DNA of 64,000 bases, taken from NCBI GenBank assembly GCA_964541635.1, contig CAZIQM010000001.1:5852-69851 (forward strand). The letters are read 5' to 3'. The notes under the pieces were generated by a model. That model ran no database searches, was not told where the DNA came from, and saw only the letters and a list, made by a program, of their open reading frames with translations. This DNA comes from an uncultured Candidatus Peribacteria bacterium. GTDB taxonomy: Bacteria; Patescibacteriota; Gracilibacteria; Peribacterales; Peribacteraceae. Shown piece after piece: positions 10,827-61,385 of this stretch (its first letter is position 1; every line of letters begins with the position of its first letter). The position numbers and the translations under genes are program-made.

Positions 10827-10832
10827 GGCTCG

Positions 10833-16966: not shown

Positions 16967-16969
16967 GCG

Positions 16970-25145: not shown

Positions 25146-25174
25146 TTGACAAGATTATATTACTATGACATGAT
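25146..25174 (+). promoter_or_regulatory. candidate promoter of giant surface protein gene 1
   Basis: TTGACA-N17-CATGAT, followed by a CT-rich leader. Confidence 0.4.
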
Positions 25175-25205
25175 CACCCCCTTTTTGTCACTCCTCCTCT
25201 TCCCT

Positions 25206-38417: not shown

Positions 38418-38812
38418 CGCGAGAGGTGTTTGATGGCGTGCTCGAGGACGCGCACCGCGCGGTCGATCTGCGCGGGGTTCGCGGACGCATCGTGCTCGTG
38501 CGCGAGGACATTGCGCAACTTATGCGCTTCCCACACCGCCTGGATGTTCGGGATGCGCGGACCGGCCTTCTTCAACTTGTCGCCGAGCGATCCCGCGAAC
38601 CCGAGTTCCGCGAGCGCGAGGTCGAGCACCGTGTCCATCGACCAGACACGCCGGACGGGGTCCTGTTGTGAAATGGCTTGCGCAAGCGCTTTTTCGACCT
38701 TCGCTTTCGACGCCCCCGACATGCCGCGGCGACGCGTTTTCAGCACGACGCCGGCAAGGACGATCGCCGCCAGGAGCGCGAGGACGCCGACGGAGATCCA
38801 CATCCCCGTCAT
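38414..38812 (-). CDS. membrane-anchored DUF4145/HEPN-like protein (132 aa)
   Basis: N-terminal TM helix. The C-terminal WEAHKLRNVLAHEHD carries an R-x4-H motif in a DUF4145-like context. 4-nt overlaps with both neighbours. Confidence 0.6.
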   Translation of the reverse strand: MTGMWISVGVLALLAAIVLAGVVLKTRRRGMSGASKAKVEKALAQAISQQDPVRRVWSMDTVLDLALAELGFAGSLGDKLKKAGPRIPNIQAVWEAHKLRNVLAHEHDASANPAQIDRAVRVLEHAIKHLSR

Positions 38813-39411
38813 TCGTCGTCTTCGTCGGAAGCGATGCCCAATTCCTTCATGTTCATCTGGTTGGCGAGGAGCGACGAGAGCATCTTCTGCACCTCCTTGC
38901 CGTCGCGCAGGTTTTTCTTATGCAGGTACTTCTCCTGGTTCGCGAGGAGCAGCGACTCGATTTTCTTCGGGCGCTTCACCGACTCGAGCGACACGCTGTC
39001 GCCCGTCGAGATTTTTTCCACGGAGATCACGCCGACTTGCAGGAGCGTGCCGATCACGCCCTTGATCTCGTAACTCACGCCCTGGATGTCGCTGTAGAGG
39101 ATGCGCGCCGATTCGCGGTGGAACCATCCGTGCCACGCGACGTCGATGATCCCTTCGTTCGTGATGATCCACGCGTCGAGGAAGTAATCGAAGAAGCTGC
39201 GCAGCCACCACACGGCGACCACGGCGCCGAACACGCCGCAGAGGATGAACATCGCGCGCGTCGGGAAGCCGACCGCGAGCAATGCATCGAAGGCGATCCA
39301 CGCTGTGGGCCACAGGAGCGCCCTCACGCCGAGCAACCAGTGCTTGTGCACCACGCGGACGAGCGTCTCGTCGTCGTCGAGATGCTTCGTGAAGAGCATT
39401 TTCTGCAGCAT
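38809..39411 (-). CDS. bacterial PH-domain (bPH_2, YdbS/YdbT-like) membrane protein
   Basis: Two TM helices, then ITNEGIIDV...ILYSDIQGVSYEIKG...ISVEK, a pattern typical of DUF304. Confidence 0.7.
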   Translation of the reverse strand: MLQKMLFTKHLDDDETLVRVVHKHWLLGVRALLWPTAWIAFDALLAVGFPTRAMFILCGVFGAVVAVWWLRSFFDYFLDAWIITNEGIIDVAWHGWFHRESARILYSDIQGVSYEIKGVIGTLLQVGVISVEKISTGDSVSLESVKRPKKIESLLLANQEKYLHKKNLRDGKEVQKMLSSLLANQMNMKELGIASDEDDE

Positions 39412-43830: not shown

Positions 43831-45111
43831 TTACTGTTGCAAAATTTTGCCCGCCAACGACGTCACGTCGCCCGCGCCCATGGTGACCACCACGTCATGG
43901 GGTTTCAGGCCTTCCGCAAGCCATTGTAAGGTTCCCTCCAGCCCGCCGCCGTCGACGACCGTCGTCGCGCTGCCGGCCGCCACGTCGGCGATGAAACGGA
44001 GGAAATCCACTTTGGCCGAATCGGATTCGCCGCGGGCGCCGTACACGTTCGGCATCACCACGAGATCGACGCCGCGGAACGCGGTGAGGAATTCGTCGTA
44101 CAGTTTCAGCGTGCGGTCGTGCGTGTGCGGCTGGAACACGACGACGATGCGGCGGCCGGGATACCCTTCCTTGATTCCCTGGAGCGACCCCGCGATCTCC
44201 GCGGGATGGTGCGCGTAGTCGTCGATGACCGTCACGCCGTCCGAGTCACGGGTGCCCTTCACTTCCATGCGCCGCCACGTGCCGCGGAATCCCGCGAGCG
44301 AGCGGAGTGCCGACTCCTCGGCGATGCCGAAGTGTTTCGCGGTCGCGAGGGCCAACCGGGCGTTCTGCCGCATGATGTCGCCCGGTACGCCGACCACGGG
44401 CAGGTCCGCCGCGTCGGCGTTGATGCCCGGATGCCCGCTGCGCGCGACGACCTCTTTGCACGTGTCGTCCGACGCGTGGAGCACCACGGGATTGCCTTCG
44501 GGTTCCAAACGGAAGAAATCGACGAACGCCTGCCGGTAGTCCTCGAGCGATCCGTAGGCGTCGAAGTGGTCGCCGTCGACGGTGGTGAGCACCGCGACGT
44601 CCGGCGAAAGGTAATGGAACGATTTCCGGTACTCGCACGCTTCGACGATGAAGATCTCGGACGCGCCTTTCCGCCAGTTGCGCCCCGCGAGGTCGGGCGA
44701 TTTCGTGCCGACCACGACCGAGGGGTCTTTGCCCGCGTCGATGAACGCCTTCGCGATCATGGCGGTCGTCGTCGATTTGCCGTGCGTGCCGCACACGGCG
44801 ATCACGGTGTAGTTCTCGCTCAGCTCGCCGAGGGCGCGGAAGTACGACTGCTGCTCGATGCCGAGATCGGTCGCTTTCCTGCGCTCCGGCGCGTCCGGCG
44901 GGACGGCTTCCGAATAGACGAAGAGATCGACATCGCCCGTCACGTGCGAGCCGTCCTGGTCGAGGAAGACCTCGATGCCCTGGCCGCGGAGGTCGTCGAG
45001 CAAGGCGCTGTCCGATTTATCGCTGCCGCGCACGACGTGCCCGTTGGCGCGCTGCAACGCCGCGTAGGCGCTGAGCCCGATGCCGCCGATGCCGCTGCAG
45101 TAGATCACCAT
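43831..45111 (-). CDS. murC: UDP-N-acetylmuramate--L-alanine ligase
   Basis: GIGGIGLSAYA...VRGSD N-terminus and the Mur ligase P-loop GTHGKSTTTAM. Confidence 0.88.
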   Translation of the reverse strand: MVIYCSGIGGIGLSAYAALQRANGHVVRGSDKSDSALLDDLRGQGIEVFLDQDGSHVTGDVDLFVYSEAVPPDAPERRKATDLGIEQQSYFRALGELSENYTVIAVCGTHGKSTTTAMIAKAFIDAGKDPSVVVGTKSPDLAGRNWRKGASEIFIVEACEYRKSFHYLSPDVAVLTTVDGDHFDAYGSLEDYRQAFVDFFRLEPEGNPVVLHASDDTCKEVVARSGHPGINADAADLPVVGVPGDIMRQNARLALATAKHFGIAEESALRSLAGFRGTWRRMEVKGTRDSDGVTVIDDYAHHPAEIAGSLQGIKEGYPGRRIVVVFQPHTHDRTLKLYDEFLTAFRGVDLVVMPNVYGARGESDSAKVDFLRFIADVAAGSATTVVDGGGLEGTLQWLAEGLKPHDVVVTMGAGDVTSLAGKILQQ

Positions 45112-46849: not shown

Positions 46850-48667
46850 TTAATCGCGCTTGAGCACGCTCAGGAACGCTTCCTGCGTGATGGTCACTTT
46901 GCCCATCTGCTTCATGCGCTTTTTGCCTTTCTTCTGCTTATCGAGGAGCTTGTTCTTGCGCGAGACGTCGCCGCCGTAGAGGTAGCCGGTCACGTCCTTG
47001 CGCATGGCGCCGATCGTTTCGCGGGCGACGACCTTGCCGCCGATCGCCGCTTGGATCGCGATTTCGAACTGCGCCTTCGGCAATACCTCTTTTAGGCGTT
47101 TGCACACGATAGCTCCCACGCTGTGTGCTTCGCTGCGGTGCACGATCGTCGAGAGCGCTTCGGCCGGTTCGCCCGCGAGCAGGATCTGCAATTTCACCAA
47201 ATCGCCGCTGTGGTACCCGAGCGGTTCGTAGCTCATGGAGCCGTACCCTTCGGTCGAACTCTTCAGGCGATCGAAGAAATCGAGGACGATCGACTGGAGC
47301 GGGACGTCGAACTTCATGAGCACGCGCTGCGCGTCGAGGTACTCCAACGCCTTCTGCGTGCCGCGTCGTTCCTGCAGCATCTGCATCACGATGCCGACGT
47401 CGACGTCGCGGCACACGACTTCGAGCGCCACCCACGGCTCGCGGACCTGTTCGATGATCACGGGATCCGGAAAGTCCGCCGGGTTGCTGATGCGCGCGGT
47501 GTCGGGCTCGTCGACCTTGAGCAGCGAGCTGCGCACGTACTCGGCCGGGTTCTTGGCGGCCATCTTCACCTCGTAGAGCACGCTCGGCGCGGTGACGATG
47601 AGATCGCAATTATGTTCGCGTTCCAGGCGTTCTTGGACGATTTCGAGGTGCAGGAGCCCGAGGAACCCGCAGCGGAACCCGTTGCCGAGGGCGGCGTTCT
47701 GTTCCGGTTCGGTGGAGAGCGCGCTGTCGTTGAGCGTCAGTTTCTCGAGCGCGTCGCGCAGGTCCGGGTACTTGTCGGCTTCGGTCGGGTACAACCCCGC
47801 GAACACCATCGGCTGCACGAGTTTGTAGCCCGGCAAGAGTTTCAGGTCCGGCGCCGACGCCATCGTGTCGCCCACGCGGACCAGGCGGACGTCCTTCATC
47901 CCTGAGACGACGTACCCGATCTGGCCGAGGACCATTTTGTCGTCCGGCACGTAGTGCGGCGAGAAATGGCCGACTTCCTGGACGTCGAACTGCGTTTTTT
48001 GGCCGAGGAGATGCACCTTCATCCCCTTCTTCAACTCACCTTCGATCACGCGGACGTACGCGATGGCGCCGCGGTAGCCGTCCATGAACGCGTCGAAAAT
48101 GAGCGCCCGGGTGCCGCCGCCCGCCGGCTGGACCGTCGGCGCCGGGATGCGCGCCGCGACCGCGTCGAGCACCTGGTCGACGTTCGTGCCGTCCTTGGCC
48201 GAAATCCTGAGGATATCCTCCTTTGCGCACCCGATGAGCTTCACCACTTCCTCGCTCACGCGCTCGGGATCGGCGGCGGGCAGGTCGATTTTGTTCAGCA
48301 CGGGGATGATCGTCAGGTCGTGCTCCATCGCCATCATGAGCACCGCGATCGTCTGGGCTTGGATGCCCTGCGACGCGTCGACGAGGAGGATAGCGCCTTC
48401 GCACGCGGCGAGACTGCGCGACACTTCGTAGCGGAAGTCGGTATGGCCCGGCGTATCGATGAGGTTGTACTCCACGCCCTTCCATTCCATGCGGACCGGC
48501 GTGAGCTTGATTGTGATCCCCCGCTCGCGCTCCAAATCGAGCATGTCGAGCGTCTGGCTCTTCATTTCGCGCTTCTGCAACGTGCCCGTCAGTTCGATCA
48601 TGCGGTCCGACAACGTCGATTTGCCGTGGTCGATGTGCGCGATGATGCAGAAGTTGCGGATATCCAT
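46850..48667 (-). CDS. lepA: translation elongation factor 4 (LepA)
   Basis: IRNFCIIAHIDHGKSTL, DTPGH, NKID, and the LepA-specific C-terminal domain. Confidence 0.96.
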   Translation of the reverse strand: MDIRNFCIIAHIDHGKSTLSDRMIELTGTLQKREMKSQTLDMLDLERERGITIKLTPVRMEWKGVEYNLIDTPGHTDFRYEVSRSLAACEGAILLVDASQGIQAQTIAVLMMAMEHDLTIIPVLNKIDLPAADPERVSEEVVKLIGCAKEDILRISAKDGTNVDQVLDAVAARIPAPTVQPAGGGTRALIFDAFMDGYRGAIAYVRVIEGELKKGMKVHLLGQKTQFDVQEVGHFSPHYVPDDKMVLGQIGYVVSGMKDVRLVRVGDTMASAPDLKLLPGYKLVQPMVFAGLYPTEADKYPDLRDALEKLTLNDSALSTEPEQNAALGNGFRCGFLGLLHLEIVQERLEREHNCDLIVTAPSVLYEVKMAAKNPAEYVRSSLLKVDEPDTARISNPADFPDPVIIEQVREPWVALEVVCRDVDVGIVMQMLQERRGTQKALEYLDAQRVLMKFDVPLQSIVLDFFDRLKSSTEGYGSMSYEPLGYHSGDLVKLQILLAGEPAEALSTIVHRSEAHSVGAIVCKRLKEVLPKAQFEIAIQAAIGGKVVARETIGAMRKDVTGYLYGGDVSRKNKLLDKQKKGKKRMKQMGKVTITQEAFLSVLKRD

Positions 48668-48736
48668 GGAAGCCGCGGTAGAGTAGCAAAAAACGCGCCG
48701 AATGGATACGGTGCCTTTCGGGGTTTCGGGCGCCGT

Positions 48737-51700
48737 TTAGTGGATATACGCGAAGATATCACCCACCGCCGGCGGCATGACCGCTGGCCCCAGCTTTTTT
48801 TGCGCGTCGAATATGGCTTCCTGGATGAGGTTGTGGACGTCGATCTCGGTCGTGATCGCGGCGAACTTTTCGCGTCGCGCTTCGACGGCCGCGCCGACCG
48901 CCACCGTGATTTTCCGCAGGTTCCCGGGCTCGAGGTGAAGATCCGGATTGCCGAGGGCGCGGTAATACTGGTCGAGCTTCGTCCGGATCGCCCCTTCGAC
49001 GGCGGCGTTATCGAATCGCGGGACGGGATCGACGGCATCGAGGACTTCGGGCGGCAGCGGCGCGATTTTCGCCTTGTCATTGAACAAGCCAAGAAGATCC
49101 GACGACGCGGGCTGCCATGCGCCAACCGTTTCTTCGGCGGCCGCCTTTTCTTCCAATTCTTCCCCGTAGCGTTTCTCCTCCTCGGAGATCCTGCGCTCCC
49201 CGCCCACGCGGCCGTTATTCACGCGGAGGCGCTCGAACGAATCCGCCCAATCCCGCGCCGAAACCTCGCGCGATGTCGTCCGCGGCGTCGCGATCGACAC
49301 CGTTTCCCATCCTCCGGTCGCGTTTTGTCGCAGGAGCACGAGACGGCTGTCCTTGCCTTCGCCCAGGCGCACGCCCCACGTGGAGCGATCGATCTGCGTG
49401 AGCACCCCCGGCCGCTCGCCGGCGCGGAACATGCGCTCCGCCCTGGACGTCCCTTTCAGGAGCTCCACGTCCTTCTTCTCGCCTTGCGCCGCGCGCTGGG
49501 CCACGATCTCGCGCAGGAACAGCGACCGCTTTTCCTCCGGAAGCCGCACGAGAGGATTGCCCAGGACGGGCAAACCGACCTCGAGATACCCCGACCCTTC
49601 GCTGCGGATACCGGCGATTTGCACGTACGAAGGCTCTTTGCCATTCCCGGCGTGCTCGGGATCGTCGCCGAGCGACAAGGGATCGCTGGAATAGACGAAC
49701 GTGACGAGGTAACGGACGGTGTTATCGGCTTCGACCATCTTCTGGCAGTGCACCGCGTAGATTTTTTCGCGCGAGAGGTAGTGGGAATCCGCTTGTACCG
49801 GAAACGCGAGGAGCTCTTTGAACGCCCGCACGTCTTCGGCATCGAACGTATCGGAAGCGACCAGCGTGGGAACGCGTCCGCCCTTGTCCTTCAACACTTC
49901 GGCGAGTTCCCCGTTGGATTCACGGAACTGGAATGTGTCCCTGGCCCACAACGCGACGGCGCGTGCGGAAGCCTCCGTGGTCCTCGATTCGAGTTGTTTT
50001 TCCGTGCCGACGAATCGCTTCGTTTCCCGCTCGCAGTGCGAAAGGTCCAGCAGGAACATCGAAAGGTCCGCCCGGAACGACGCGTAGATATCCGACAGCG
50101 TTTCTTTGTCGTACGCGGCGCATGCGTCGGCGCCGTACTCGGCGCGATACGCGTCGAAGTCGACGCGGGAACGCGCCGCCGCCTCCTTCGCGCGGGCGAG
50201 TTGTTCGTTCGCCTTGGCGAGGGCGGTCGTGGCTTCGTCCAGGTTTCCCGTGTACGGCACGTCGTGGGGACGTTCCCTCCTGAAACGCGTGATCTCGGCG
50301 TCGAGCGTCTCGACAGTTTTCTTCTTCGCATCAACGTCGGTTTGCGTGGCCGCGACGTTCGCGTCCGCGAGTTCGGCGCGCGAGCGCCAAAACACGTACC
50401 GTTCCAGGAACCGCAAACGGGAATGCTCCGCGGAAACGACGTTATGCTGCTCCATGAGCTGCCGCCGTTCGGTCCGGAGCTGCGGATACGCATCCGCGCC
50501 CATCATCGGTTCTATCGCCGGAATGGCGCGGTTGATGTCGGGCACGCACGTCGTTTCAGGATCGCGGACACCGCCGTCCGAAAACCTGATAGCTCCGTCT
50601 TTGCCGAGCTTCTCCGTTCCCGCGATGCCAGCAGTCGAAACGTCGAAGTCGCGGTCGTACGAGAAACGCCTGGCGGCGATCGTGTCCGTCTTGCCGTCCA
50701 CCTTCATGGGCGTCTCGCGGAACGTGTTCGGGCCGCCGCCCGTCGTGCGCCCGCTGTCCATGACGTCCTCCCACGTCGCGTCCGGGCCGCCGCCCGCTTT
50801 GAGCAACGTTTCGCGGAAACGGGCCATGAGGAGTTCCGTGCGTGTTTTCCCGCCGTTCTTCGCGAGTTCGCCTTCGACGTCGAGAAGGCGCGTATGCAGC
50901 ACGACTTTCGACCCGAGCTCATAGCGGCGCGCCTCGAGCAACTCGCGGATGACGGGATCCCGTTCGCCCTTGGCGTCCGCGGAAACCTGGAGGAACTGCT
51001 TCTCTTGCAGGTGCGTGGCGTAGGCCTTTCCCGCGCCGCGAAGCGCTTCCGCCAGGCGCTTCGGCTCGATGTCCTGCATGAACCAATCGCTGTTGGGGTT
51101 GTATCCCCTCTGCGTGTTCAACCCGTCGATGAACGACATGCCCACATCGGCACGGTGTCCGTCCACGAACATGTGCGTCGCGTAGAACGGAAGGACGTGC
51201 GTTTGGAAATCGCCCTCGAAGAATTCCTGCATGCGGTCCGCGGGACCGCCGAATTGCGCGGCGATCACGCCGTACTCGCTCGGCGCGTGCGTCTTCATCT
51301 CGCGCAGGAACAGCGCGAAGAACAATTTTTTCCGGATTTCGACGTCTTTCGCCTCTTTCAGGTTCAGGGTGGAAAGCCCGTCGAGCACGAAATCAACGTA
51401 GGAATCGCCGAGGAGGTGTTCTTCCTGTTGGTTGATCGTCGGCGTCGTTCCGCCGAGGTGCGCCAGGATCCACGCGGGGCAACGCCGGACGAACTCGTAG
51501 TACGAATTCTTTTCCCACGCGCTGACTGCCGAATGGAGGGTGACGATGACGCCCAAGGCGATCCATCCGGGGGGACCTTCCCACCCGAGCCCGCTCGCGA
51601 GGAACGCGAGCATCGACGTCGAATCGATGCCGAGACGCCAGTTGGCGGCGGTTTTCTCCGTCGTCGGATCGAGCGCCGACGCGTCGATCGACACCTTGTC

Positions 51701-54700
51701 GCCGTACCAATAGACGTTCCCTTTTTTCGTGAGGAGCGGATCAGACCCGCCCGAGAGCTCGTCGAGCTGTTTGGCCATGCGCGCGCTCGCGTCTTTGTAG
51801 AAGTTTTCGGCACGCTGCAATGCCAGGAGATCTTCGTACACGATGTACGCTTCCGCAGCGGCACCGGCGAAGAACAGCATGTTTCGCGCTGCGGGGGAGC
51901 TCATCCACTTCGCGAGGAGCGATTCTTCCGTTTTGAGGAGCGGACGTCCGGCATTCGGACCCGGCGAGACCGACGGGCCGCGCCGGCCGCCGACGACGCG
52001 GATGTTCGACGTGCTTACCCGACCGAACGCGGATCCCCCTTCCGCCGCCGCGGCACCCATGCGCGTCAGCCCCCGTCCTCCGGTTCCGAACTTGGCCACC
52101 GTCTCCGTCACGTCCCCGCAGATCCCGGACCGCAGAAGCGTGCCGGCTTGCTCCAGCGAGAAGATTCCGTTTTTCGTGAGGATCGACATTTTCGCCTCCA
52201 TCGTGGCGGCCACGTGCGCTTCCCAGATCGCGGCCCGTTGGGCCGGCAAGAGCTCGAACCGCAGCCCGAGCAATTGGCGGGCGCCCGTCACGCGCAACGC
52301 GTGCTCCGCGGCGATCGTTTCGTCCAGCACCCGCTGGAGCGCCGTCAGGTGATCGCCGCGCGCGCCCTTGAGCGCGTCGGCAAGCGCCGGATCGAGACCC
52401 TTGCGGAGCTCGCCCAGCTCGACGGCGTACTTCGCGTCATCGAGGCCCTGCATCGTCCGCAGCTTCTCCAGGGCACCCTGCGCGCGTTCGGTACGGCCCG
52501 CGAGCGTGCCGATTTCACCGAACGTTTCCCGTCCGATGTCCGTGCCCAGGTATTCCTGGATCCTCGCCTGCGCGTTCGCGCGACGGACCTGCAGGCGCGA
52601 TCCTCTCATCACTTTCTCCAGTTCCTCCACGCGGGCCTTGGCGGCCGTCGCTTCCGCCCTGGCAACCCGGGCTTCTTCCTTGGCCGCGGCAGATTCCGTC
52701 TTGGCCGCGGCGGCTTCCGCCTTCGCCGCCCGCGCTTCCGCCTGCGCCGCTTCGACCTGCGCTTGCGCGATCTCTTCCACCGTTTTGGGAGCGCCGAAGA
52801 CCGCGTTCTTGCCCGCCGTCCACGCCTTGCCCATCACCCACTTCGTGCCCTTCCAGGCGACGGCGCCGAACACCGCGCCGCCCGCCGCCACGGCGAGCAG
52901 GAGGAGCGCGATGTCCATCTGCGCGTCGCCGAACTCGTGGTAGAACCTCTCCATGTCGAGGTGCGTCCCGACGATCGTGTTGAAATCGCCCAGAAGCACT
53001 TCGTACTCCTTGGAATAGTTCTCCCAATCAGCCTTCAGCGTCTGGAACGTCTGCACGTAAATGCCGCGCATGCGCTCCATCTCCTCGGGCGTCAGTTCCG
53101 ATCGAACTTGTTCGGGCGTGAGCTTGTCGATGGGCACCTTGCCGAACCGTTTCTGCAGCCGCTGCCGCACGGACGCGATGAACGCCGTGGAATCGGCATC
53201 GACCTCCGGCAGCCCCGCTTTCCCGTCGACGTCGACGAGTTGCTCCGGGAGCAGCACCGGCGAGTCGATGAGGCCCTTCGCCGTCGCGACCGACACTTTC
53301 AGCTTGTCGATGCCGGAGCGTTCGCGGAACCTCCGGATCGCTTTTTCGATCGAATCCTGCTTCTCTTTGATCTTTTCCCAATCTTCCTTCTCCAGTTGTT
53401 CGACCGGCCGCCCCGTCTTGGGGTCGCGCGGCCAACCGACCGCGTCGTAGATGCTGCCGTCTTCGGCGTTCGAATCGAGGATCCACGACTTCATTTGCTG
53501 GCGCAAATAGTCGCCGCCGAGCATGTCGGGAAGCGTCGGCACCCATGCCGTCTCCACCCCCGCCACGCGATCCGCGAACCACGTCATGTTCGGCCTGACC
53601 CGCCCGTTCCACACGGTTTCCGCCTTCTCGGCGATGCCCACGCGCAGCACCCCGCTCTCGACGCGTTGGAGATGCGTATCGACCGCCGCAATGCCTCCCT
53701 TCGCCTGCATCTGGAGCCATTCGCGGTACTTTTGTATTTCGGGATCGTCTTTCAGCGGGAGCGGTTCACGCTGCGCCGTGTCCGTTTCGGCATCTTGCCC
53801 GATGTGGTGGCGCATGAACGACAGCTCCGCGCGCAGGATCTGGTACCCGCCCATCATCCCGCTGATGCGCGCGAGACGTTTGACGTTCTCTTCGGAATCC
53901 GCGCGAAGACCCTCGAGCGCCGTGTTCTTCCCCTCGAGCAACCGCAGGTCGAGTTGGTACTGGACGTAATCGTACGGTTTCCCGTCGACGTTCAACGACG
54001 GGTCTTCCTGCAGCGCGGCGTTCGCCTCGTTTTTCGGGATGGGTTTCTTGCCGATCCTGTCGAGGATCGGGTCGGCCCGCTTCACGCGTTCCGTCGCCTC
54101 GGGGATTCCCTGGCCTTTGCCCACCTCCCGGTAGCGATCCATGATGCGTTTGTACTGCTCTTTCTGCACGTCCAAGAGGACGCGGAACGCCGGCAAAATG
54201 CCTTCTTTGTTGTTTCCCGGAACGTCGGCGTCGGTGCAGAGCAGCAGCTTCAAAATCTGCCGATCCGCTTCCGTTTTTTGCTGCGGCGTCGCGTTCGGAT
54301 TGCGCGCGATGGCCATGCGCTTCTCGCTGGCCTGCGTCAGCATCGCGAGATGCTCCATGACGATCGCGTCTTCCCCCGTGCTCGCGCCGCGTCCCACGTC
54401 ACGGAGCTTTTTGTATTCCTCGACCAGGTCCATGTAGATCGTGAGTCCTTTGGCGAGGCTTTCCTTCGTCGAGGCGCGCATCTGCGCCGCGACGAGCGAG
54501 CGCGTCTCCGCCGGCGTGGGACTCCGTTTCTCGGCGTTGATTTTGGACACGATCCTCGACGCCTGCATGCGCTCGACGCCGGCGTGCAATTCCCCGTACA
54601 TCTCGGCCAGCGACACCGTGCCGCGCGGATCGCGCAATTCCCTCTTCATTTCCTCGGTTTCGTACTCTTCGCGTTGCGCGTTCCACGGCTCCGCGGACGG

Positions 54701-54832
54701 CTGGTACCGACCGATGACCGAACGCGCCCGATCGACCGTGTTGGGAATATCCAACGACTTCTTCACTGACGGCGCCCCTTCGGCGGGCCGGGATTCTGGA
54801 GCCGGTGTTGGTGTCGGTTTTGGGAGTTCCAT
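48737..54832 (-). CDS. giant orphan membrane protein (2031 aa), mostly helical, with a central TM helix followed by an Ala/Glu/Lys coiled coil
   Basis: Uninterrupted, protein-like ORF. The ATG at 54832 lies 4 nt after the upstream stop. TM helix MDIALLLLAVAAGGAVFGAVAW (about 52853-52918), then AQAQVEAAQAEARAAKAEAAAAK.... No catalytic motif recognised. Confidence 0.85.
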   Translation of the reverse strand: MELPKPTPTPAPESRPAEGAPSVKKSLDIPNTVDRARSVIGRYQPSAEPWNAQREEYETEEMKRELRDPRGTVSLAEMYGELHAGVERMQASRIVSKINAEKRSPTPAETRSLVAAQMRASTKESLAKGLTIYMDLVEEYKKLRDVGRGASTGEDAIVMEHLAMLTQASEKRMAIARNPNATPQQKTEADRQILKLLLCTDADVPGNNKEGILPAFRVLLDVQKEQYKRIMDRYREVGKGQGIPEATERVKRADPILDRIGKKPIPKNEANAALQEDPSLNVDGKPYDYVQYQLDLRLLEGKNTALEGLRADSEENVKRLARISGMMGGYQILRAELSFMRHHIGQDAETDTAQREPLPLKDDPEIQKYREWLQMQAKGGIAAVDTHLQRVESGVLRVGIAEKAETVWNGRVRPNMTWFADRVAGVETAWVPTLPDMLGGDYLRQQMKSWILDSNAEDGSIYDAVGWPRDPKTGRPVEQLEKEDWEKIKEKQDSIEKAIRRFRERSGIDKLKVSVATAKGLIDSPVLLPEQLVDVDGKAGLPEVDADSTAFIASVRQRLQKRFGKVPIDKLTPEQVRSELTPEEMERMRGIYVQTFQTLKADWENYSKEYEVLLGDFNTIVGTHLDMERFYHEFGDAQMDIALLLLAVAAGGAVFGAVAWKGTKWVMGKAWTAGKNAVFGAPKTVEEIAQAQVEAAQAEARAAKAEAAAAKTESAAAKEEARVARAEATAAKARVEELEKVMRGSRLQVRRANAQARIQEYLGTDIGRETFGEIGTLAGRTERAQGALEKLRTMQGLDDAKYAVELGELRKGLDPALADALKGARGDHLTALQRVLDETIAAEHALRVTGARQLLGLRFELLPAQRAAIWEAHVAATMEAKMSILTKNGIFSLEQAGTLLRSGICGDVTETVAKFGTGGRGLTRMGAAAAEGGSAFGRVSTSNIRVVGGRRGPSVSPGPNAGRPLLKTEESLLAKWMSSPAARNMLFFAGAAAEAYIVYEDLLALQRAENFYKDASARMAKQLDELSGGSDPLLTKKGNVYWYGDKVSIDASALDPTTEKTAANWRLGIDSTSMLAFLASGLGWEGPPGWIALGVIVTLHSAVSAWEKNSYYEFVRRCPAWILAHLGGTTPTINQQEEHLLGDSYVDFVLDGLSTLNLKEAKDVEIRKKLFFALFLREMKTHAPSEYGVIAAQFGGPADRMQEFFEGDFQTHVLPFYATHMFVDGHRADVGMSFIDGLNTQRGYNPNSDWFMQDIEPKRLAEALRGAGKAYATHLQEKQFLQVSADAKGERDPVIRELLEARRYELGSKVVLHTRLLDVEGELAKNGGKTRTELLMARFRETLLKAGGGPDATWEDVMDSGRTTGGGPNTFRETPMKVDGKTDTIAARRFSYDRDFDVSTAGIAGTEKLGKDGAIRFSDGGVRDPETTCVPDINRAIPAIEPMMGADAYPQLRTERRQLMEQHNVVSAEHSRLRFLERYVFWRSRAELADANVAATQTDVDAKKKTVETLDAEITRFRRERPHDVPYTGNLDEATTALAKANEQLARAKEAAARSRVDFDAYRAEYGADACAAYDKETLSDIYASFRADLSMFLLDLSHCERETKRFVGTEKQLESRTTEASARAVALWARDTFQFRESNGELAEVLKDKGGRVPTLVASDTFDAEDVRAFKELLAFPVQADSHYLSREKIYAVHCQKMVEADNTVRYLVTFVYSSDPLSLGDDPEHAGNGKEPSYVQIAGIRSEGSGYLEVGLPVLGNPLVRLPEEKRSLFLREIVAQRAAQGEKKDVELLKGTSRAERMFRAGERPGVLTQIDRSTWGVRLGEGKDSRLVLLRQNATGGWETVSIATPRTTSREVSARDWADSFERLRVNNGRVGGERRISEEEKRYGEELEEKAAAEETVGAWQPASSDLLGLFNDKAKIAPLPPEVLDAVDPVPRFDNAAVEGAIRTKLDQYYRALGNPDLHLEPGNLRKITVAVGAAVEARREKFAAITTEIDVHNLIQEAIFDAQKKLGPAVMPPAVGDIFAYIH

Positions 54833-54836
54833 CGGT

Positions 54837-55403
54837 TCAGGGCAACAATTCGCCGGTTTCCCCGCCGTAGGTATTGGGGAGCTGTTCCGCCGCGCCGTTC
54901 GCGGCGTTGCCGATGGCTTCGGCCGCCGTGTCGGCGCCCAGCTTGCCGTACAAGTGCGATATGCCGAGCTTCGAGAACAATCCTTCGATATCACCCGCCA
55001 GGTAGTACGCTCCCCCGATCGCCGCCGCGGTCAACGCCAAGAGCCCTATGGACGTCAGGACGGGATGCCGCTTGAAGGACCGCCATGTCCATCGAAAAGG
55101 CGCGGTCACGACGTTCTTCGTCCAACGCCACGTGGTTCCGAGGAGCGTTTCCTTACGGGCGAATTCCTGCTGGTGCAAACGATACGTTCGTTCGACGGCT
55201 TCCGAACTGCCGTTGAGTCCGTACTTGTGCAATTCTTCGACGATTTCCTTCTGCTTGAGGTTCGAATCCTTCAAGGTCCGAAGCACCTCCGGGCCGTAGG
55301 CCCGCTCGAAGTGTTCGTCGAGCTCTTCGATCGTTTCGACGTGGGGAACCTCGACGATGGACAGGTTCTTCTTTTTCGTCGCCTGTTTCTGTTGGGAGCT
55401 CAT
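54837..55403 (-). CDS. single-pass membrane protein (188 aa)
   Basis: MSSQQKQATKKK..., with TM helix VLTSIGLLALTAAAIGGAYYLAG. The start lies 1 nt after the upstream TAA. Confidence 0.7.
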   Translation of the reverse strand: MSSQQKQATKKKNLSIVEVPHVETIEELDEHFERAYGPEVLRTLKDSNLKQKEIVEELHKYGLNGSSEAVERTYRLHQQEFARKETLLGTTWRWTKNVVTAPFRWTWRSFKRHPVLTSIGLLALTAAAIGGAYYLAGDIEGLFSKLGISHLYGKLGADTAAEAIGNAANGAAEQLPNTYGGETGELLP

Positions 55404-55404
55404 A

Positions 55405-55818
55405 TTACGCGATGGAAATGGAAGCATTCGTGTTCAGGATGTCGCGGCGGATATGGGAAAGTCCCACGACGCCCTCGACGTCTTCGTCGTCCGCGCACGC
55501 GGACAAGAGTTCGCGGATCATGTGCGTCACGCCGACCGCGCCGATCGTGAAGAACAATTCCGGCAGTGCGTCCTGCGGGATGTCCTTGATGGTTTGCGGA
55601 TCGATCTTCTCGCCCCTCACGGCCTTCTGCACGAAATCCCGCAGGTCCGGGAACGCATCGAAGCGCGCCATGCCCGCGCGGACCTTCAGCACGTCGGCGT
55701 CTTCGTAGGCCGTGCCGTTCTCCTCCTCGACCGTCCACCCCTCGCGGAGCGTCTCGGGCAACGAGGAAAAGACTGCGGACTCGGCCGCGGTGAGGTAGAG
55801 GGTGGTGTGTGTAGCCAT
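55405..55818 (-). CDS. small acidic hypothetical protein (137 aa), first gene of the giant-protein operon
   Basis: The ATG at 55818 lies 6 nt downstream of a TATACT box. Confidence 0.7.
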   Translation of the reverse strand: MATHTTLYLTAAESAVFSSLPETLREGWTVEEENGTAYEDADVLKVRAGMARFDAFPDLRDFVQKAVRGEKIDPQTIKDIPQDALPELFFTIGAVGVTHMIRELLSACADDEDVEGVVGLSHIRRDILNTNASISIA

Positions 55819-55824
55819 CTCCCG

Positions 55825-55853
55825 AGTATACCCGATTTTACGTAAAAATTCAA
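55825..55853 (-). promoter_or_regulatory. near-consensus promoter giving a leaderless transcript
   Basis: The minus strand reads TTGAAT-N17-TATACT-cgggag-ATG. Confidence 0.6.
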
Positions 55854-56800
55854 CGTTTCAGCGCTTCCCGAAGCGCCGACTCGCCGTTCCCGATATCGGC
55901 CAGCGCCTGCGTTTGGCCATCCGGGCGTCCGAACCGTGCCGAAACGGTCGAAATCTTGTCTCCCGCCGCTTGCGGGACGCTCGACAGCGGCACGCCCGCC
56001 GCCGCGGCCGCGAGCGCGCCGTGGAAACGTTCGCACACGCAATGCGACGCGGTGGCGAGGAGAGACATCAAATCGTCGACGGTGCGGATCGTCCGGACGG
56101 ACGCTTGCGGATACGTCCGGCGCAACGCCTCCACCGCTTTCCTCTCGCCCGGATCATCGGGCTGGAAGAGCGCGATGACCACGTCCACGTGCCGGAGGTT
56201 CGTCGCGTGGGATTCGAGCGCGGCCAGGAAATTCTTCCCCGAGTTGTGACGCGGGATGAGGACGTAGGAGTTGTCCGGTCGGTACGCGCGTTTCTTGGCG
56301 AGGAACAGCGCGAAAACGGGATCGAACGCCAGCACGACGGACGCGCGCTTCGACCATCCGGCGATGCGCGCGAACGAGGCGTCGTCGCGCACCGAGACCG
56401 TCGTCGCCATGCGCACCACGCGTCGCGCGATCCACTCCCCCGCCGCGGTCCTGAACGGACCGATCCCTTGGAATGCGAGATGTACCGGCACGCCGAACAT
56501 CCGCGCCGCGGCTGCGTGGATCCCCCACACGACGCATGCCTTCGGCGATTCGATGTCCGTGAAGAGGGTCCCCCCGCCGAACACGACGGCGTCCGCGCGA
56601 CGGATGGCCCCGAGCGTCTTCATCCACGGCGTGCCGACGAACGACCGGATTCCCGCGGGCAGGCGCGGCAACTCCCCTCCTCCCGGATGCGCGGACAGGA
56701 CCGTCCATTCGACGCCGGAGTACGCGCCCAGGAAATACTCCTTCAGCGCCTCGTCACCGAAATTCCCGACCCCGTAATTGCCGATGAGGACGGCGTTCAT
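55850..56800 (-). CDS. csaB: polysaccharide pyruvyl transferase (CsaB-like)
   Basis: LIGNYGVGNFGDEALKEYF...ADAVVFGGGTLFTD...GVPVHLAFQGIGP are typical PS_pyruv_trans motifs. Confidence 0.8.
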   Translation of the reverse strand: MNAVLIGNYGVGNFGDEALKEYFLGAYSGVEWTVLSAHPGGGELPRLPAGIRSFVGTPWMKTLGAIRRADAVVFGGGTLFTDIESPKACVVWGIHAAAARMFGVPVHLAFQGIGPFRTAAGEWIARRVVRMATTVSVRDDASFARIAGWSKRASVVLAFDPVFALFLAKKRAYRPDNSYVLIPRHNSGKNFLAALESHATNLRHVDVVIALFQPDDPGERKAVEALRRTYPQASVRTIRTVDDLMSLLATASHCVCERFHGALAAAAAGVPLSSVPQAAGDKISTVSARFGRPDGQTQALADIGNGESALREALKR

Positions 56801-57360: not shown

Positions 57361-57948
57361 TTAGCGGGTCGCTTCCTCGATCTGCTTCTGCAGCTGGTTC
57401 AAGACCACCATGTGGCGCGGATCATTGAGGATTTCGATGACGAAACGGTCCTTCAGGCTCAGGCGGTAGAGGAAGTCCGCCTCGGAGAAGATCGAGTACT
57501 TCACGTACTTCATCTGCGGATCCTGGAGGAGCAAGGCCTCGATCACCTCCTTCTTCACGTCCCCCACGATGAGCAGGTCGACCTTCGATTCGCTGCTGAC
57601 GAAGGCACCCGCAAGGAGGATGAGCTTCACGTGGGGCAGGGCGCGCAGGCTTTGGACCAGGGGGCTCTCCCCTTGGACGGCCTTCGAGAACAAGCTGCGC
57701 AAATCCTGGTAGAGCGGGAACTCGGTATCGACGTGGTAGTACTTCTTGCGGTTCTTGTGGCGCGCCTTCACCAATCCGATCTTCCGAAGGTTCTCGAGCT
57801 CGCGGCGGATGCTGTTGATCTGCTCGTTCAGGAGACGCGTCAGCTCACGGATGAAGTACTCCTCCTCCGGATGAAGGAGGAACGTGGAGAGCAATTTGAC
57901 CCGAGTTTGGGAGCTGAAGAGGGACTTCAGCACTGCTGCGGAGGACAT
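57361..57948 (-). CDS. winged-HTH (ArsR/MarR-like) transcriptional regulator with a nucleotidyltransferase-like C-terminal domain
   Basis: LFSSQTRVKLLSTFLLHPEEEYFIRELTRLLNEQINSIRRELENLRKIGLV. The ATG at 57948 is preferred over the GTG at 57969. Confidence 0.75.
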   Translation of the reverse strand: MSSAAVLKSLFSSQTRVKLLSTFLLHPEEEYFIRELTRLLNEQINSIRRELENLRKIGLVKARHKNRKKYYHVDTEFPLYQDLRSLFSKAVQGESPLVQSLRALPHVKLILLAGAFVSSESKVDLLIVGDVKKEVIEALLLQDPQMKYVKYSIFSEADFLYRLSLKDRFVIEILNDPRHMVVLNQLQKQIEEATR

Positions 57949-57960
57949 ATGAGCACAAGT

Positions 57961-57976
57961 AGTATTCACGAATACT
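57961..57976. promoter_or_regulatory. perfect 7-2-7 palindrome (candidate operator)
   Basis: AGTATTC-ac-GAATACT, 13 nt upstream of the regulator ATG. A further TTGTG-tt-CACAA lies at 58004-58015. Confidence 0.45.
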
Positions 57977-58171: not shown

Positions 58172-58205
58172 ATTGAGAAAATGGCTCATTTCTGCTATAC
58201 TTATG

Positions 58206-60062
58206 GGAATGCATACACACACCCTCCGCCGCGTCACCGCGAGCCTTTCCGCCATCGTCGCGGGGGTGATCGTCCCCTCGGTCACGTTCGCCCAGGTGGT
58301 CGGCGGCGGGACGCTGCCGGTGAACCAAACCTACGACGTCATCTCGAAGTACACCGTCCTGGTCGCCCAGTTCTTGAACATCATGACCTGGTTCGTGTTC
58401 TCGTTCCTCATCTTCCTCCTCGATCCCCGCTTCATGTTCGACATGAAAGACGGGGTGGAAGGAAGCCTGATGGAGGTGTTGAACCTCATCTGGCGGCTTT
58501 CCAGGGACCTCATGAACGTGGGTTTCGCCGTCGGGCTCGTGGGCGCGGCCATCTACACGGTTGTGAAGGCGGACAAGGAATTCGTCTCGGCGCACCTGAA
58601 AACCTTCGTGATGGCGGTCGTGCTCGTGAACTTCTCGTGGTTCATCCCGCGGGTCATCCTCGACGTCGCCAACATCGCCACGGCCACCGTCTACTCGATT
58701 CCCACGGCGATCACGAACCCCGCGGCGCAGTGCACCTACACGAGCGTGAAGGAGGAGGGCTGCATCAAGGCCGACGCCGGCGGCGCGGCGCTTCCGCCGG
58801 GCGAAATGCTCTGCAAGTGCAAGGCCGTGGCCGACTTCATCCCCTTCCCCGGCACCAAGAAGGCCGAAGACCTCAAAGAGAAGGATAAAACCTGGCAGTG
58901 CTACTGGCTCTACTGCGTCCGGTTCGTCGAGCTGGACCCCAAGACCAGCACCAAGCAGGGCGGCGTCTTGAACGGACTGATCATCAACCACGCCCGCCTG
59001 CCCCAGCTGGCGGTCGTCACGCGCACGGACGTCGACGGCGACATCGCCGACCTCCTGCTCTTCATCCTGCGGCAAATGGTCGTGATCATGATCCACATCG
59101 CGATCCTCTTCCCGCTCGTGGCCTTGCTCATCGCGCTCGTCGTCCGGATCCCTATCCTGTGGATGACGATCGCCTTCATGCCGTTCTACTTCGTCAGCTG
59201 GGTGATCCCCGACGAAATACCCGGCATGGGGCAGGTGAAGGAATTCGCCGACAAAATCCTCAGCCTGTTCCTGAAAGCCGCGTTCCTGCCCGCGGCGGTC
59301 GCCGTGCCCCTCAGCATCGGCTACCTCATGGCGAACGCCGGCTCGCGGGTGTCGTTCGACGGCATCAAGGACATGCCGTTCAACCTCATCGACGGCATGG
59401 GCAACTTCGGCCAATTGCTGTGGGTCATCATGGTGCTCGGCATCCTCTGGACCGGCACCTTCACGGTCCTCGAGATGATGATGTCCGGCATGCCGGGCGA
59501 AGGCCTCATCGGCCAAATCAAGGAAACGGGCGAACAGGCCGGCAAGTTCGCGGCGGAGTTGCCGCTCTCGTCGGTACCGCTGCCGGGCGTCGCGGGCAAC
59601 AACCTCCTCAAGTTCGGCAAGATGTTCGGCGCCGAAGGCATCCGCAACGCGCGCTCCACGCTCCAGCGCGGCGGTCCCAGCGCCCTCCTGGGCGCGGCCA
59701 CGGGCGGATTCAAGGACGAAGACATCCTCAAGACCCGCGGCCAAGACATCGCGAAGGAAAAGGACGGCAAGGACAAGTTCGTGAAAGCGCTCGATGAGTT
59801 CAGCGGCAAGGACGCCGGTAGCCTGAAGGTCGACGACATCCAGGTGATCTTCAAGGACCAGCTCAAGGGCACGGGGGTCACGCTGACGGACGACAACTTC
59901 AAGAAGCACATCGGCGACCTCATGAAGACGCTCAACCTCGACGACGGCAAGATCCGCGCGTTCAACACGCAGGCCGACAAGTACATCAACCTGAAGAAAG
60001 CCGGCGGCGGCGCGCCCGCCCCGGGCGGCGCCCCCGGCGCACCTCCCGCTCCCGTCATCTAA
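58206..60062 (+). CDS. polytopic membrane protein with a Cys-rich external loop and long soluble tail (TrbL/VirB6-like topology, tentative)
   Basis: Signal peptide MHTHTLRRVTASLSAIVAGVIVPSVTFAQ, about 8 TM helices, a 7-Cys loop and a Gly/Pro-rich C-terminal end. The TTG at 58173 is rejected as the start. Confidence 0.8.
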   Translation, partial: GMHTHTLRRVTASLSAIVAGVIVPSVTFAQVVGGGTLPVNQTYDVISKYTVLVAQFLNIMTWFVFSFLIFLLDPRFMFDMKDGVEGSLMEVLNLIWRLSRDLMNVGFAVGLVGAAIYTVVKADKEFVSAHLKTFVMAVVLVNFSWFIPRVILDVANIATATVYSIPTAITNPAAQCTYTSVKEEGCIKADAGGAALPPGEMLCKCKAVADFIPFPGTKKAEDLKEKDKTWQCYWLYCVRFVELDPKTSTKQGGVLNGLIINHARLPQLAVVTRTDVDGDIADLLLFILRQMVVIMIHIAILFPLVALLIALVVRIPILWMTIAFMPFYFVSWVIPDEIPGMGQVKEFADKILSLFLKAAFLPAAVAVPLSIGYLMANAGSRVSFDGIKDMPFNLIDGMGNFGQLLWVIMVLGILWTGTFTVLEMMMSGMPGEGLIGQIKETGEQAGKFAAELPLSSVPLPGVAGNNLLKFGKMFGAEGIRNARSTLQRGGPSALLGAATGGFKDEDILKTRGQDIAKEKDGKDKFVKALDEFSGKDAGSLKVDDIQVIFKDQLKGTGVTLTDDNFKKHIGDLMKTLNLDDGKIRAFNTQADKYINLKKAGGGAPAPGGAPGAPPAPVI

Positions 60063-60068
60063 TCCCCC

Positions 60069-61385
60069 ATGACGTCCGGCGCAGAACGATTGCCCACCGG
60101 CCCCCGCGAAACGCCCGAACAGGAGCGTGGCCGCTTGCTGGACGCGACCGTGACCCAACTCGCCTCGCGGAAATTCGACGAGGTGCGGCGCAACCCGGGC
60201 CTGACCCAGGATGCGCAAACGAGGAAAAGCTACGAAACCATGATCGGCGAGCTGCAATCGCTCCACGGCGCATCGAAAAGCGTCGCCGCGGACGCGGAGA
60301 GGCACGTGACGCCGTACTTCGATTCGATCGATCCCACGGGCAGCGCCTCGCAGCGACTCGAGGAAATCTGCGAACGGATCCAAGCCGATATCCCCGCGTA
60401 CGGCGAGGAACCGGTCGACCACCCGTACCTCACGCGCTCGACCGTCGACCCCCGGGTGAAAGGCCTCGAACCGGTGGAGGATGACAAGAAGATCTCGATC
60501 TACCACATCTTCAACGGATCGCCGTTCTGCAAAGGGGCCCTCCGGACCGACATCGCCTTCCTCCGCGGGCACCTGAAGAACGTTCCCGCGAACACCGACG
60601 CGTCGAAGGGGCTCACGACGCTCATCCTCCACATGGAACGGATGCGCATGACGGACCCGCCGAACTCGTGGGAACACCTCATGCAGGTTGAACGGGGCGG
60701 CAGGACCGCGATGGACACCGGCGTCAAAGAAATGGGCCGCGTGGCCCTCGCGGGCATCTTCCTCGCGGGGCTTACCCTCACCGGCATCGCGTCGATCGTG
60801 CAGTTCTTCCGCAAAGGCGAACTGTCGCTCTCGTGGGTGTTCTGGCTCGTCGCGGCGCTCGTGGCGGCCGACAAGGACATCCTGAAGACCATGTTCGGCA
60901 GCGACGCGAAAATCCTGAAGGATTTCGATGACGTGAACCGCGTGAGCACGAACCCGCGCCTTCGCAGGATCGCGGGAAAATACGACGTGGGCGGCCAGCG
61001 CTGGTCCGCCGTCGTCCAGAAGCTCTACGACGACGAAGAAGAGTACCGGAAGGTCATCGAGCTGAAATCGCCCGATGCGGAAACCCTCGCGAAGACGGTG
61101 AACGAGCTCTCGGGTGAACAACCGATCAAGCCCGGCGAAGAGCCGCCGAAGGGCACGATCCGCGGGGCGCTGTACCTGATGCTCACCACGAAGGACGCGC
61201 GGGGCGTCAGCGAATTCGAGGAATTCTTCACTGGGCTCATGGGCGCGAAAGCCGAAGGCGGCCGGGAATTCATGGTCACGTTCGTCCGCAACGACTCGTT
61301 CAAAGCCGGGCTCGACATGGATGCCGGCACGATGAAGGGCGTGAAAGCGACCGTCGCGGCGCAGAAAGGAGCGGCAGGACGCTGA
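60069..61385 (+). CDS. hypothetical membrane protein (438 aa, 2 central TM helices)
   Basis: Starts 6 nt after the upstream stop. TM pair VALAGIFLAGLTLTGIASIV / WVFWLVAALVAA. Confidence 0.75.
   Translation: MTSGAERLPTGPRETPEQERGRLLDATVTQLASRKFDEVRRNPGLTQDAQTRKSYETMIGELQSLHGASKSVAADAERHVTPYFDSIDPTGSASQRLEEICERIQADIPAYGEEPVDHPYLTRSTVDPRVKGLEPVEDDKKISIYHIFNGSPFCKGALRTDIAFLRGHLKNVPANTDASKGLTTLILHMERMRMTDPPNSWEHLMQVERGGRTAMDTGVKEMGRVALAGIFLAGLTLTGIASIVQFFRKGELSLSWVFWLVAALVAADKDILKTMFGSDAKILKDFDDVNRVSTNPRLRRIAGKYDVGGQRWSAVVQKLYDDEEEYRKVIELKSPDAETLAKTVNELSGEQPIKPGEEPPKGTIRGALYLMLTTKDARGVSEFEEFFTGLMGAKAEGGREFMVTFVRNDSFKAGLDMDAGTMKGVKATVAAQKGAAGR

Follow-up and report, generated by a model that had tools for sequence, protein, structure and literature searches.

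A co-conserved gene trio encoding a 2031-residue predicted membrane protein in an uncultured Candidatus Peribacteria bacterium

Membrane-anchored coiled-coil scaffolds such as PodJ and TipN of Caulobacter, EzrA and MapZ are large, non-enzymatic, lineage-specific proteins that come with small partner proteins, and they diverge fast, as is usual for coiled-coil scaffolds. In the PodJ-like layout, a long cytoplasmic N-terminal domain without a signal peptide precedes a single transmembrane (TM) helix. Here we describe an operon of three genes (A, B and C), located entirely on the minus strand of a 64,000-nt stretch (the window) from an uncultured Candidatus Peribacteria bacterium (contig CAZIQM010000001.1), in which gene C encodes a giant protein of 2031 aa with a layout that can be likened to that of PodJ. 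Peregrinibacteria and Peribacteria are uncultured candidate phyla radiation bacteria, and their cell biology is scarcely characterised. The trio remains together across the relatives examined and falls outside the known kinds, bearing no sequence or structural relation to described families for the parts that were profiled or modelled (the models cover only the core and the C-terminal region of C). The operon comprises the following features:

55825..55853, minus strand: promoter TTGAAT-N17-TATACT, with the -35 hexamer at 55853-55848 and the -10 hexamer at 55830-55825
55405..55818, minus strand: gene A, 137 aa, an acidic soluble protein of net charge -12
54837..55403, minus strand: gene B, 188 aa, a bitopic membrane protein with one TM helix
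48737..54832, minus strand: gene C, the giant, 2031 aa (coordinates include the stop codon)
48668..48736, minus strand: intergenic region between C and lepA (minimum free energy z = 0.12)

The original prediction had placed a near-consensus promoter 6 nt before the 137-aa gene, a 188-aa single-pass protein 1 nt after it and the 2031-aa protein a further 4 nt downstream, and this arrangement is what the minus strand contains. The stretch between the -10 TATACT and the gene A ATG at 55818 reads CGGGAG, the A/B junction is TAA-t-ATG and the B/C junction is TGA-accg-ATG, while the stop codon of the upstream pyruvyl-transferase gene falls within the -35 hexamer. Orthologue N-termini line up with the starts that give B 188 aa and C 2031 aa, and a product identical to C (2031 aa) is present in a public protein collection. 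Because the -10 hexamer ends only 6 nt from the gene A ATG, the transcript is predicted to be leaderless.

The exact promoter pattern occurs once in the window where 0 occurrences are expected; a generic sigma-70 scan of the 11.7-kb neighbourhood returned 1 site against 1.7 expected, and given this lack of enrichment the promoter match by itself proves little. The promoter is credible because of its conservation and context. TATAAT or TATACT lies 6-8 nt before the gene A ATG in five of five orthologous loci, TTGAAT or TTGAAG is also kept at 17-nt spacing in two or three of the loci, and a TG-n extended -10 is present in several. In the window as a whole, a TANNNT ending 5-9 nt upstream accompanies 10 of 43 candidate gene starts compared with 1.45% of all ATG/GTG positions (p = 5e-10), an excess which would make leaderless starts a genome-wide habit that the A-B-C operon follows; Shine-Dalgarno-like motifs are unenriched (4 of 43 starts, 11% background). 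Examples of leaderless-type starts are:

2144-2458 (minus), 3728 (plus), 5071-7104 (minus), 38809-39411 (minus), 43831-45111 (minus), 55850-56800 (minus): leaderless-type gene starts

At the other end of the operon, no convincing intrinsic terminator was found between C and lepA, and lepA has its own -10-like TACTCT 12 nt before the ATG. The tight coupling of the giant to both of its partners that had been proposed holds in part: in relatives the A/B junction stays tight, from a 4-nt overlap to a 7-nt gap, whereas the gap from B to the next gene ranges from 4 to 44 nt. Collectively, the conserved signals and junctions show A, B and C under one promoter, predicted to be leaderless, with translation of A and B apparently tightly coupled. 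Window genes with leaders carry a different feature, namely pyrimidine-rich (C/T) tracts directly before the ATG (2735 plus, 14775 minus, 23840 minus, 32014 plus, 40428 plus and 42443 plus), and in their place the internal genes of four lower-GC relatives (L003, L004, L005 and L007) have CA-rich 'acacaaacaca' tracts. Neither type of tract is a Shine-Dalgarno sequence, and together they suggest a putative initiation signal of another kind.

The conservation of the trio was followed through public contigs. An A homologue, a bitopic B-type protein and a giant with the N-module and/or core described below are adjacent in 11 of 11 triads with enough DNA (window, L002-L005, L007, both of L009, L011, L013 and L018) over a GC range of 39-64%, and the leaderless -10 precedes A in the window and five orthologous loci. 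In the window, the operon has housekeeping flanks on the same strand: upstream are a 202-aa protein, ribosomal protein L19 (rplS) and a polysaccharide pyruvyl transferase (CsaB-like, PS_pyruv_trans), and downstream of C is LepA, with IF-2 and a Mur ligase close by. The order L19, pyruvyl transferase, A (137-148 aa), B (182-228 aa), giant and LepA recurs in L002, L003 and L004. In the five-gene loci of L005 (4818-9921) and L007 (1240-6375), this order is interrupted after B by two additional large genes, of ~760-830 aa and 860-920 aa, which precede the giant. BLAST identified A orthologues with 30-64% identity, as well as B orthologues, in L002-L005 and L007, and it showed that the first extra gene of L005 and L007 encodes a copy of the N-module as a separate protein, which has a TM helix of its own. 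The second extra protein (~900 aa) has one TM helix and no detectable relatives beyond these loci. L009 contains two tandem A-B-giant triads (1131-17889; hidden Markov model (HMM) of A, E 1e-26 and 1e-37).

In addition, a metagenome scan seeded with A returned 13 loci, in which a B homologue directly follows A in all eight with at least 300 bp downstream and a family giant comes next in all three with more DNA (L011, L013 and L018). The L013 triad lies in another neighbourhood, without pyruvyl transferase, L19 or LepA, and thus the unit is the triad and not the wider syntenic block. The notion of a dedicated three-gene unit is borne out by these triads, the tandem copies and L013 included, and the trio stays together in the relatives as the original prediction required. 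A distant subgroup (P0025) appears to carry different small genes (344 and 63 aa) upstream of the giant.

Among the relatives of the giant, L002 alone has a taxonomic label, being a contig of an uncultured Candidatus Peribacteria metagenome-assembled genome; L001 is a 1.36-kb strain fragment 99% identical to the window from an independent sample. LepA and L19 are 91% and 75% identical between the window and L002, compared with 51%, 29% and 35% for A, B and C; in L005, LepA has 73% identity to the window and the 202-aa protein 70%, compared with 30%, 27% and 23% for A, B and C. The trio therefore diverges far more quickly than the housekeeping genes on either side, and A is the better conserved of the two small partners. 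Lineage-specific changes include duplication of the triad (L009) and fission or duplication of modules (L005 and L007). Taken together, gene order and sequence comparison show a trio that appears to be inherited vertically and duplicated as a unit, syntenic and in the core genome. The stand-alone N-module paralogue with its own TM helix suggests that like modules could form hetero-oligomers.

These data also bear on the idea that there is no functional unit, only three unrelated hypothetical genes or an over-called giant open reading frame (ORF) in a high-GC genome. High-GC DNA does yield long spurious ORFs, and the generic promoter scan is unenriched. One such ORF of 2271 aa (47954-54769, plus strand), antisense to lepA and the giant, overlaps C and is a shadow ORF typical of high-GC DNA rather than a gene. 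However, C has a coding-type GC content at third codon positions (0.80), is matched in length by ~50 homologues and gives confident AlphaFold models, and its partners are conserved across GC contents of 39-64%. Already refuted by the conservation data, this idea is hardly credible.

The giant had been considered an orphan, a view that did not survive when 1.84 billion cluster representatives were scanned exhaustively by HMMER, using C residues 832-2031 as the query. The scan recovered 50 representatives at E<=1e-3 (49 plus the query), 30 at E<=1e-10 and 8 at E<=1e-30, nearly all of them 1450-2700 aa long. The region common to these giants is a core of ~370 residues (C residues 975-1345) that includes a hydrophobic patch, and iterative searches within the family found the N-module (chiefly residues 275-660) in at least 15 distinct family proteins and the C-terminal region, to about residue 1850, in 16 family members.

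Profile searches assigned none of these proteins to a known family, in agreement with the original prediction. A, B and C have no significant match in Pfam-A, NCBIfam, PADLOC or PHROGs, 16 members of the giant family have no Pfam match at E<=0.01, and 8 A homologues have none better than E 0.05. Searches of PDB sequences (phmmer/hmmsearch) with C, its core, its C-terminal region and its N-module returned nothing below E 0.07, and A and B had no match. C and 16 family members match no HMM for EzrA, DivIVA or other coiled-coil division scaffolds defined in Pfam. Several library matches were rejected as compositional: a zinc-finger model (E 0.24), CARF/SAVED models (E 0.005-0.04) on the charged N-terminus of B, and phage tail or head models on an Ala/Glu/Lys low-complexity helix of C. 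Paralogy of C with both other giants of the window was likewise rejected, there being no similarity, as was a viral, plasmid or mobile origin of the trio, with nothing similar in viral contigs, viral structures or plasmids.

Within C, conservation and structure models delimit the following features:

52925..54832, minus strand: N-module (C residues 1-636), charged, with an acidic, Pro/Thr-rich N-terminus; residues ~275-660 family-conserved
52853..52918, minus strand: TM helix of C (residues 639-660), MDIALLLLAVAAGGAVFGAVAW, one strong span, Kyte-Doolittle 2.45
52610..52777, minus strand: Ala/Glu/Lys/Arg-rich low-complexity helix (C residues 686-741)
50798..51910, minus strand: conserved family core (C residues 975-1345), a helical bundle with a three-strand sheet
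51524..51613, minus strand: hydrophobic helical hairpin, the hydrophobic patch of the core (C residues 1074-1103), with an EGPPG turn
49946..50485, minus strand: coiled-coil arm (C residues 1450-1629), three antiparallel helices of 71, 39 and 51 residues, ~100 Å, predicted local distance difference test (pLDDT) mostly 85-97
49283..49867, minus strand: alpha/beta domain (C residues 1656-1850), motifs YL.TFVYS, YVQ.G..R.GSGY.E.GLP, ER(I/M)FRAG and W.VR
48746..49270, minus strand: helical C-terminal domain (C residues 1855-2029), conserved in closer relatives only

Together the alignments and models show a giant that is predicted to consist of four modules, namely the N-module, the TM helix, a helical core with a hydrophobic hairpin, and an arm of ~100 Å with alpha/beta and helical domains. 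The N-terminal part, earlier put at about 690 residues, is shortened to ~638 aa by the position of the TM helix, whose sequence is the one originally quoted, and the Ala/Glu/Lys coiled coil and hydrophobic patch of the original prediction are present at residues 686-741 and 1074-1103. The N-module is also encoded separately, as the 760-830-aa paralogues of the five-gene loci. As had been noted, C contains no recognisable enzymatic or repeat motif: a motif scan found no Walker A, HExxH, CxxC or LPxTG, and there are no internal repeats. An internal duplication relating the N-module to the C-terminal region was rejected (hhalign probability 0.2%).

The AlphaFold model of the core, based on an alignment of 15 sequences, has a pLDDT of 76.7 and a predicted template modelling score of 0.73, and contains a 48-residue helix, a three-strand sheet, a helical hairpin (84-107, 114-143) and a bundle of further helices. 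Invariant or near-invariant residues of the core include R1066, P1087, W1106/E1107, P1119, E1137, H1274 and N1326-GGKTR. The hydrophobic hairpin is framed by three of these landmarks, R1066, P1087 and W1106-Glu, with arms of ~19-20 residues each, a length that spans a bilayer; it is only moderately hydrophobic, and its second arm carries an E...R/H pair in most family members, such that the hairpin may be buried in the protein or may insert only conditionally. With the core model as query, Foldseek reached E 1.3 at best and TM-scores below 0.25 against PDB, and returned no neighbour from the viral library. A P-loop reading of N-GGKTR was rejected, as the spacing is wrong and the motif lies between two helices in the model; [AG]xxxxGK[ST] is absent from C, and the match to it in 12 of 50 family members is at chance level and at non-homologous positions. 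When dynamin-like proteins and mitofusins were considered, C proved to lack a P-loop and had no Pfam dynamin or GTPase match and no Foldseek match.

The C-terminal model (17 sequences; pLDDT 80.8) comprises a disordered linker, the arm, the alpha/beta domain and the helical end domain. Foldseek matched it only to generic coiled coils (JetC/SMC arms, RipA, EnvC and PI3K iSH2; TM-score normalised to the query <=0.16), and the alpha/beta domain at residues 1656-1850 had no specific structural neighbour. The best Foldseek neighbour belongs to SMC/MukB/JetC (8q72_A, E 5.7e-4; 9qxu_B, probability 0.99 over 262 columns), proteins which share long antiparallel coiled-coil arms with C. However, the TM-score on the query is only 0.15-0.16 and the arm alone is matched, and C has no ABC-ATPase head, Walker A/B, hinge or Pfam SMC domain.

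Of the two small partners, A has the conserved motifs NTTLYLT, L(R/K)EGW.VE.E, G(A/P) and R(H/R)..L. In size and acidity A is similar to calmodulin and EF-hand light chains, and the profile of A weakly matches both lobes of calmodulin over a helix-loop-helix segment, the whole-sequence E of ~0.01 being made up of two sub-threshold pieces (i-E 13-27); the alignment of A has no 12-residue Ca-binding loop consensus and there is no Pfam EF-hand match, so that the possible likeness to calmodulin or EF-hand proteins is a weak lead and not a membership. In B, a charged N-terminal region of ~112 aa and a basic RWTWRSFKRHP precede a TM helix, and a short Gly/Ala/Pro-rich C-terminal tail follows it:

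54993..55061, minus strand: TM helix of B (about residues 115-137), rich in small residues

On account of the basic residues before this helix and the Gly/Ala/Pro tail after it, B is predicted to be oriented with its N-terminus inside and its C-terminus outside. That at least B and C are membrane proteins, as the original prediction held, is consistent with these predicted TM helices.

The location of the giant was approached through its composition. C has no hydrophobic N-terminus and hence no signal peptide is seen. Its four segments contain 24-32% Asp, Glu, Lys and Arg and 24-27% Ser, Thr, Asn, Gln and Gly, similar to LepA and IF-2, and the N-module is the most charged of them (31.5% Asp, Glu, Lys and Arg). 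Two other giants of the window, which bear signals and DUF11 repeats, contain 14-19% of the charged residues, ~40% of Ser, Thr, Asn, Gln and Gly, and 41-76 cysteines. C is free of LPxTG, of SLH, DUF11 and Ig Pfam domains and of internal repeats when examined as a surface adhesin. Composition and the missing signal peptide point to a C that would be mostly intracellular rather than a classical surface adhesin.

We tentatively propose, with a likelihood that falls short of an even chance, that A, B and C are subunits of a membrane-anchored coiled-coil scaffold specific to the Peribacteria/Peregrinibacteria lineage and mostly cytoplasmic, in which A would serve as adaptor or chaperone and B would be the partner that crosses the membrane. 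The TM helix would hold the giant at the cytoplasmic membrane, the bulk of the protein lying in the cytoplasm, and the core hairpin might dip into the bilayer as an extra anchor. B, with its N-terminus inside and its short Gly/Pro-rich tail outside, may pair with the giant through TM helices rich in small residues, which would link the complex to the wall side, and A, soluble and acidic, would bind B or C at a helical segment as an adaptor or chaperone. The complex would be non-catalytic, organising or tethering at the membrane, for example at a site of division, polarity or envelope assembly. In comparison with PodJ, TipN, EzrA and MapZ, C has no sequence or Pfam relation, is two to three times larger, and is encoded in a fixed operon with A and B; moreover, its core with the hydrophobic hairpin and its alpha/beta domain have no counterpart in those scaffolds.

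Several observations weigh against this proposal. The core hairpin, moderately hydrophobic and with E/R in most members, is possibly just buried, and a site dedicated to binding or catalysis, which would be superfluous in a pure scaffold, is hinted at by the invariant polar core residues (R, E, H, N, GGKTR). Fast evolution and paralogue expansion are as typical of surface or host-interaction proteins, and the composition argument for a cytoplasmic C is a heuristic only. Furthermore, acidic residues precede and Lys/Arg-rich sequence follows the TM helix of C in five of five homologues examined; this charge bias is opposite to that of PodJ-type N-in anchors, and under the positive-inside rule it would place the N-module outside and the remainder inside. 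A giant with a single TM helix cannot, in any case, be wholly cytoplasmic.

The same charge flanks, being opposite to those of a signal anchor, speak against a second explanation, that of the original prediction, in which C is an envelope-spanning tether or putative host-contact protein: its N-module would be cytoplasmic, the TM helix would act as a signal anchor, and residues 661-2031 would cross the wall to reach the S-layer, a wall polymer or a host cell. The strong single span of C and the tail of B predicted outside are compatible with such a tether, as are the long rigid arm with distal alpha/beta and helical domains, the extracellular coiled coils of RipA and EnvC among the weak Foldseek neighbours, and the fast evolution and paralogue expansion of the trio. 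Peribacteria are inferred to be symbionts with large extracellular surface proteins (PMC4736985), and a polysaccharide pyruvyl transferase lies directly upstream of the trio in 6 loci. However, the sequence after the TM helix is cytoplasm-like in composition and unlike the exported giants of the window, C has no SLH, Ig-like, DUF11 or other surface-type domain, and the pyruvyl transferase is absent beside the L009 and L013 triads, its adjacency elsewhere perhaps reflecting conserved gene order. We regard the tether as unlikely.

The signal-bearing giants that serve as this comparison are encoded by adjacent genes (25146-31856 and 32014-37824, both plus strand) and are paralogues of each other, with 2236 and 1936 aa, N-terminal hydrophobic signals, 9 and 3 DUF11 repeats, DUF7507, CARDB and SpaA-like domains, and 41 and 76 cysteines, respectively. 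They resemble the cysteine-rich extracellular giants described from Ca. Peribacter riflensis (PMC4736985). C shares with all of these surface proteins its giant size and fast evolution, and with the two of the window a genome, but their signal peptides, Ig-like DUF11 repeats, low charge and many cysteines have no equivalent in C. A GC dip to 51-56% at 22-26 kb lies ahead of their genes.

If the positive-inside rule does hold for C, the N-module would lie outside despite the lack of a signal peptide, which would suit a self-exporting or membrane-inserting effector or translocon. A would then be an acidic export chaperone and B a membrane partner, and the giant or its N-module would cross its own or a host membrane without Sec, the sheltered core hairpin inserting conditionally as in proteins of the colicin/Bcl-2 or type III secretion system (T3SS) translocator type. 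In favour of this, orthologous giants begin with a disordered, acidic and Pro/Thr-rich stretch, the first gene is in every case A, whose product is small and acidic, and the hydrophobic hairpin sits inside a helical bundle. A hairpin in a helical bundle, coiled coils and a small acidic protein encoded just upstream are likewise what C has in common with T3SS translocators and their class II chaperones, colicin/Bcl-2-type pore domains and chlamydial Inc proteins. There is no fold or sequence likeness to these proteins, however, and the hairpin arms of C carry E/R in most members: Foldseek with the core model found no resemblance to translocators, colicins or Bcl-2, and no SipB/IpaB/YopB or CesT/TPR chaperone match was found by sequence (by fold for the core of C only). 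No secretion ATPase, other secretion gene or known secretion component occurs in or beside the 9 loci examined, and the segment to be exported, the N-module, is the most charged of all. We know of no case in which an N-terminal domain of 600 aa is exported without assistance, which also counts against an effector, and we judge this explanation rather improbable. A related possibility, quite improbable in our estimate, is that the trio constitutes a previously unrecognised membrane machine of Peregrinibacteria in which the N-module would reach the outside without a Sec signal, by export or insertion independent of an ATPase, with A as chaperone and B as membrane partner, and the exposed modules would contact or fuse with a host.

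The genomic neighbourhood invites a further explanation, an enzyme or assembly factor at the membrane that would serve the making of a wall glycopolymer or of the S-layer, act with the pyruvyl transferase and glycosyltransferase-like neighbours and use the polar core residues as a putative active or binding site. The invariant R, E, H, N and GGKTR adjoin the membrane-proximal hairpin, PS_pyruv_trans is directly upstream in most loci, a weakly PMT-like protein is encoded divergently in the window, and Wzy_C occurs near a distant family member. On the other hand, there is no sequence or fold match to a glycosyltransferase, polymerase, ligase or flippase, and GGKTR is not a Walker A motif and is missing from distant members. 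The adjacency is part of a conserved housekeeping gene order and is gone in L009 and L013, and for this loss we did not adopt a functional link to the pyruvyl transferase. An enzyme or assembly factor of this kind appears very improbable, and the membrane-anchored scaffold remains our tentative proposal.

Beyond the pyruvyl transferase, upstream of rplS, the 202-aa protein (57361-57969, minus strand) is better conserved than L19 or LepA, with 95% identity in L003 and 70% in L005, and has only a weak winged-helix (HVO_A0114) Pfam match (E 7e-5) under the curated threshold. It is followed by two divergent genes on the plus strand, 58173-60062 with a 629-aa product without Pfam match and 60069-61385 with a 438-aa product and the weak match to a PMT-like glycosyltransferase. 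L003, L011 and L018 have gene pairs that resemble the 58173-61385 pair in size and orientation, and synteny probably extends past the triad to this divergent pair. Elsewhere in the window, a protein with a lysyl-oxidase domain (19495-21384, plus strand; E 1e-12) adjoins a PIF1-like helicase with a C-terminal helix-turn-helix (17048-19186, plus strand); to our knowledge, the lysyl-oxidase domain is unusual in bacteria. The DNA at 8000-10000 has a GC content of 54.5% compared with ~65% elsewhere, no ORF passing the high-GC3 coding filter and no Rfam match, and may be foreign or non-coding.

The value of these results lies in a well-defined, testable module rather than in a demonstrated mechanism, and conserved 'dark' families are common in such genomes. 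The module is a concrete target for metaproteomics, cryo-electron tomography and heterologous expression, and offers new folds for structural study; if the unusual topology suggested by the charge flanks of C is true, it would point to a new route by which a large domain comes to lie on the far side of a membrane. The trio takes up ~7 kb of a genome that is only ~1.25 Mb in completed relatives (58.5% GC; PMC4736985), and it has been kept together over deep divergence (GC 39-64%, LepA identity 73-91%). A conserved unit of such cost likely matters to these bacteria for building or organising the envelope, for division or for interaction with partner cells.

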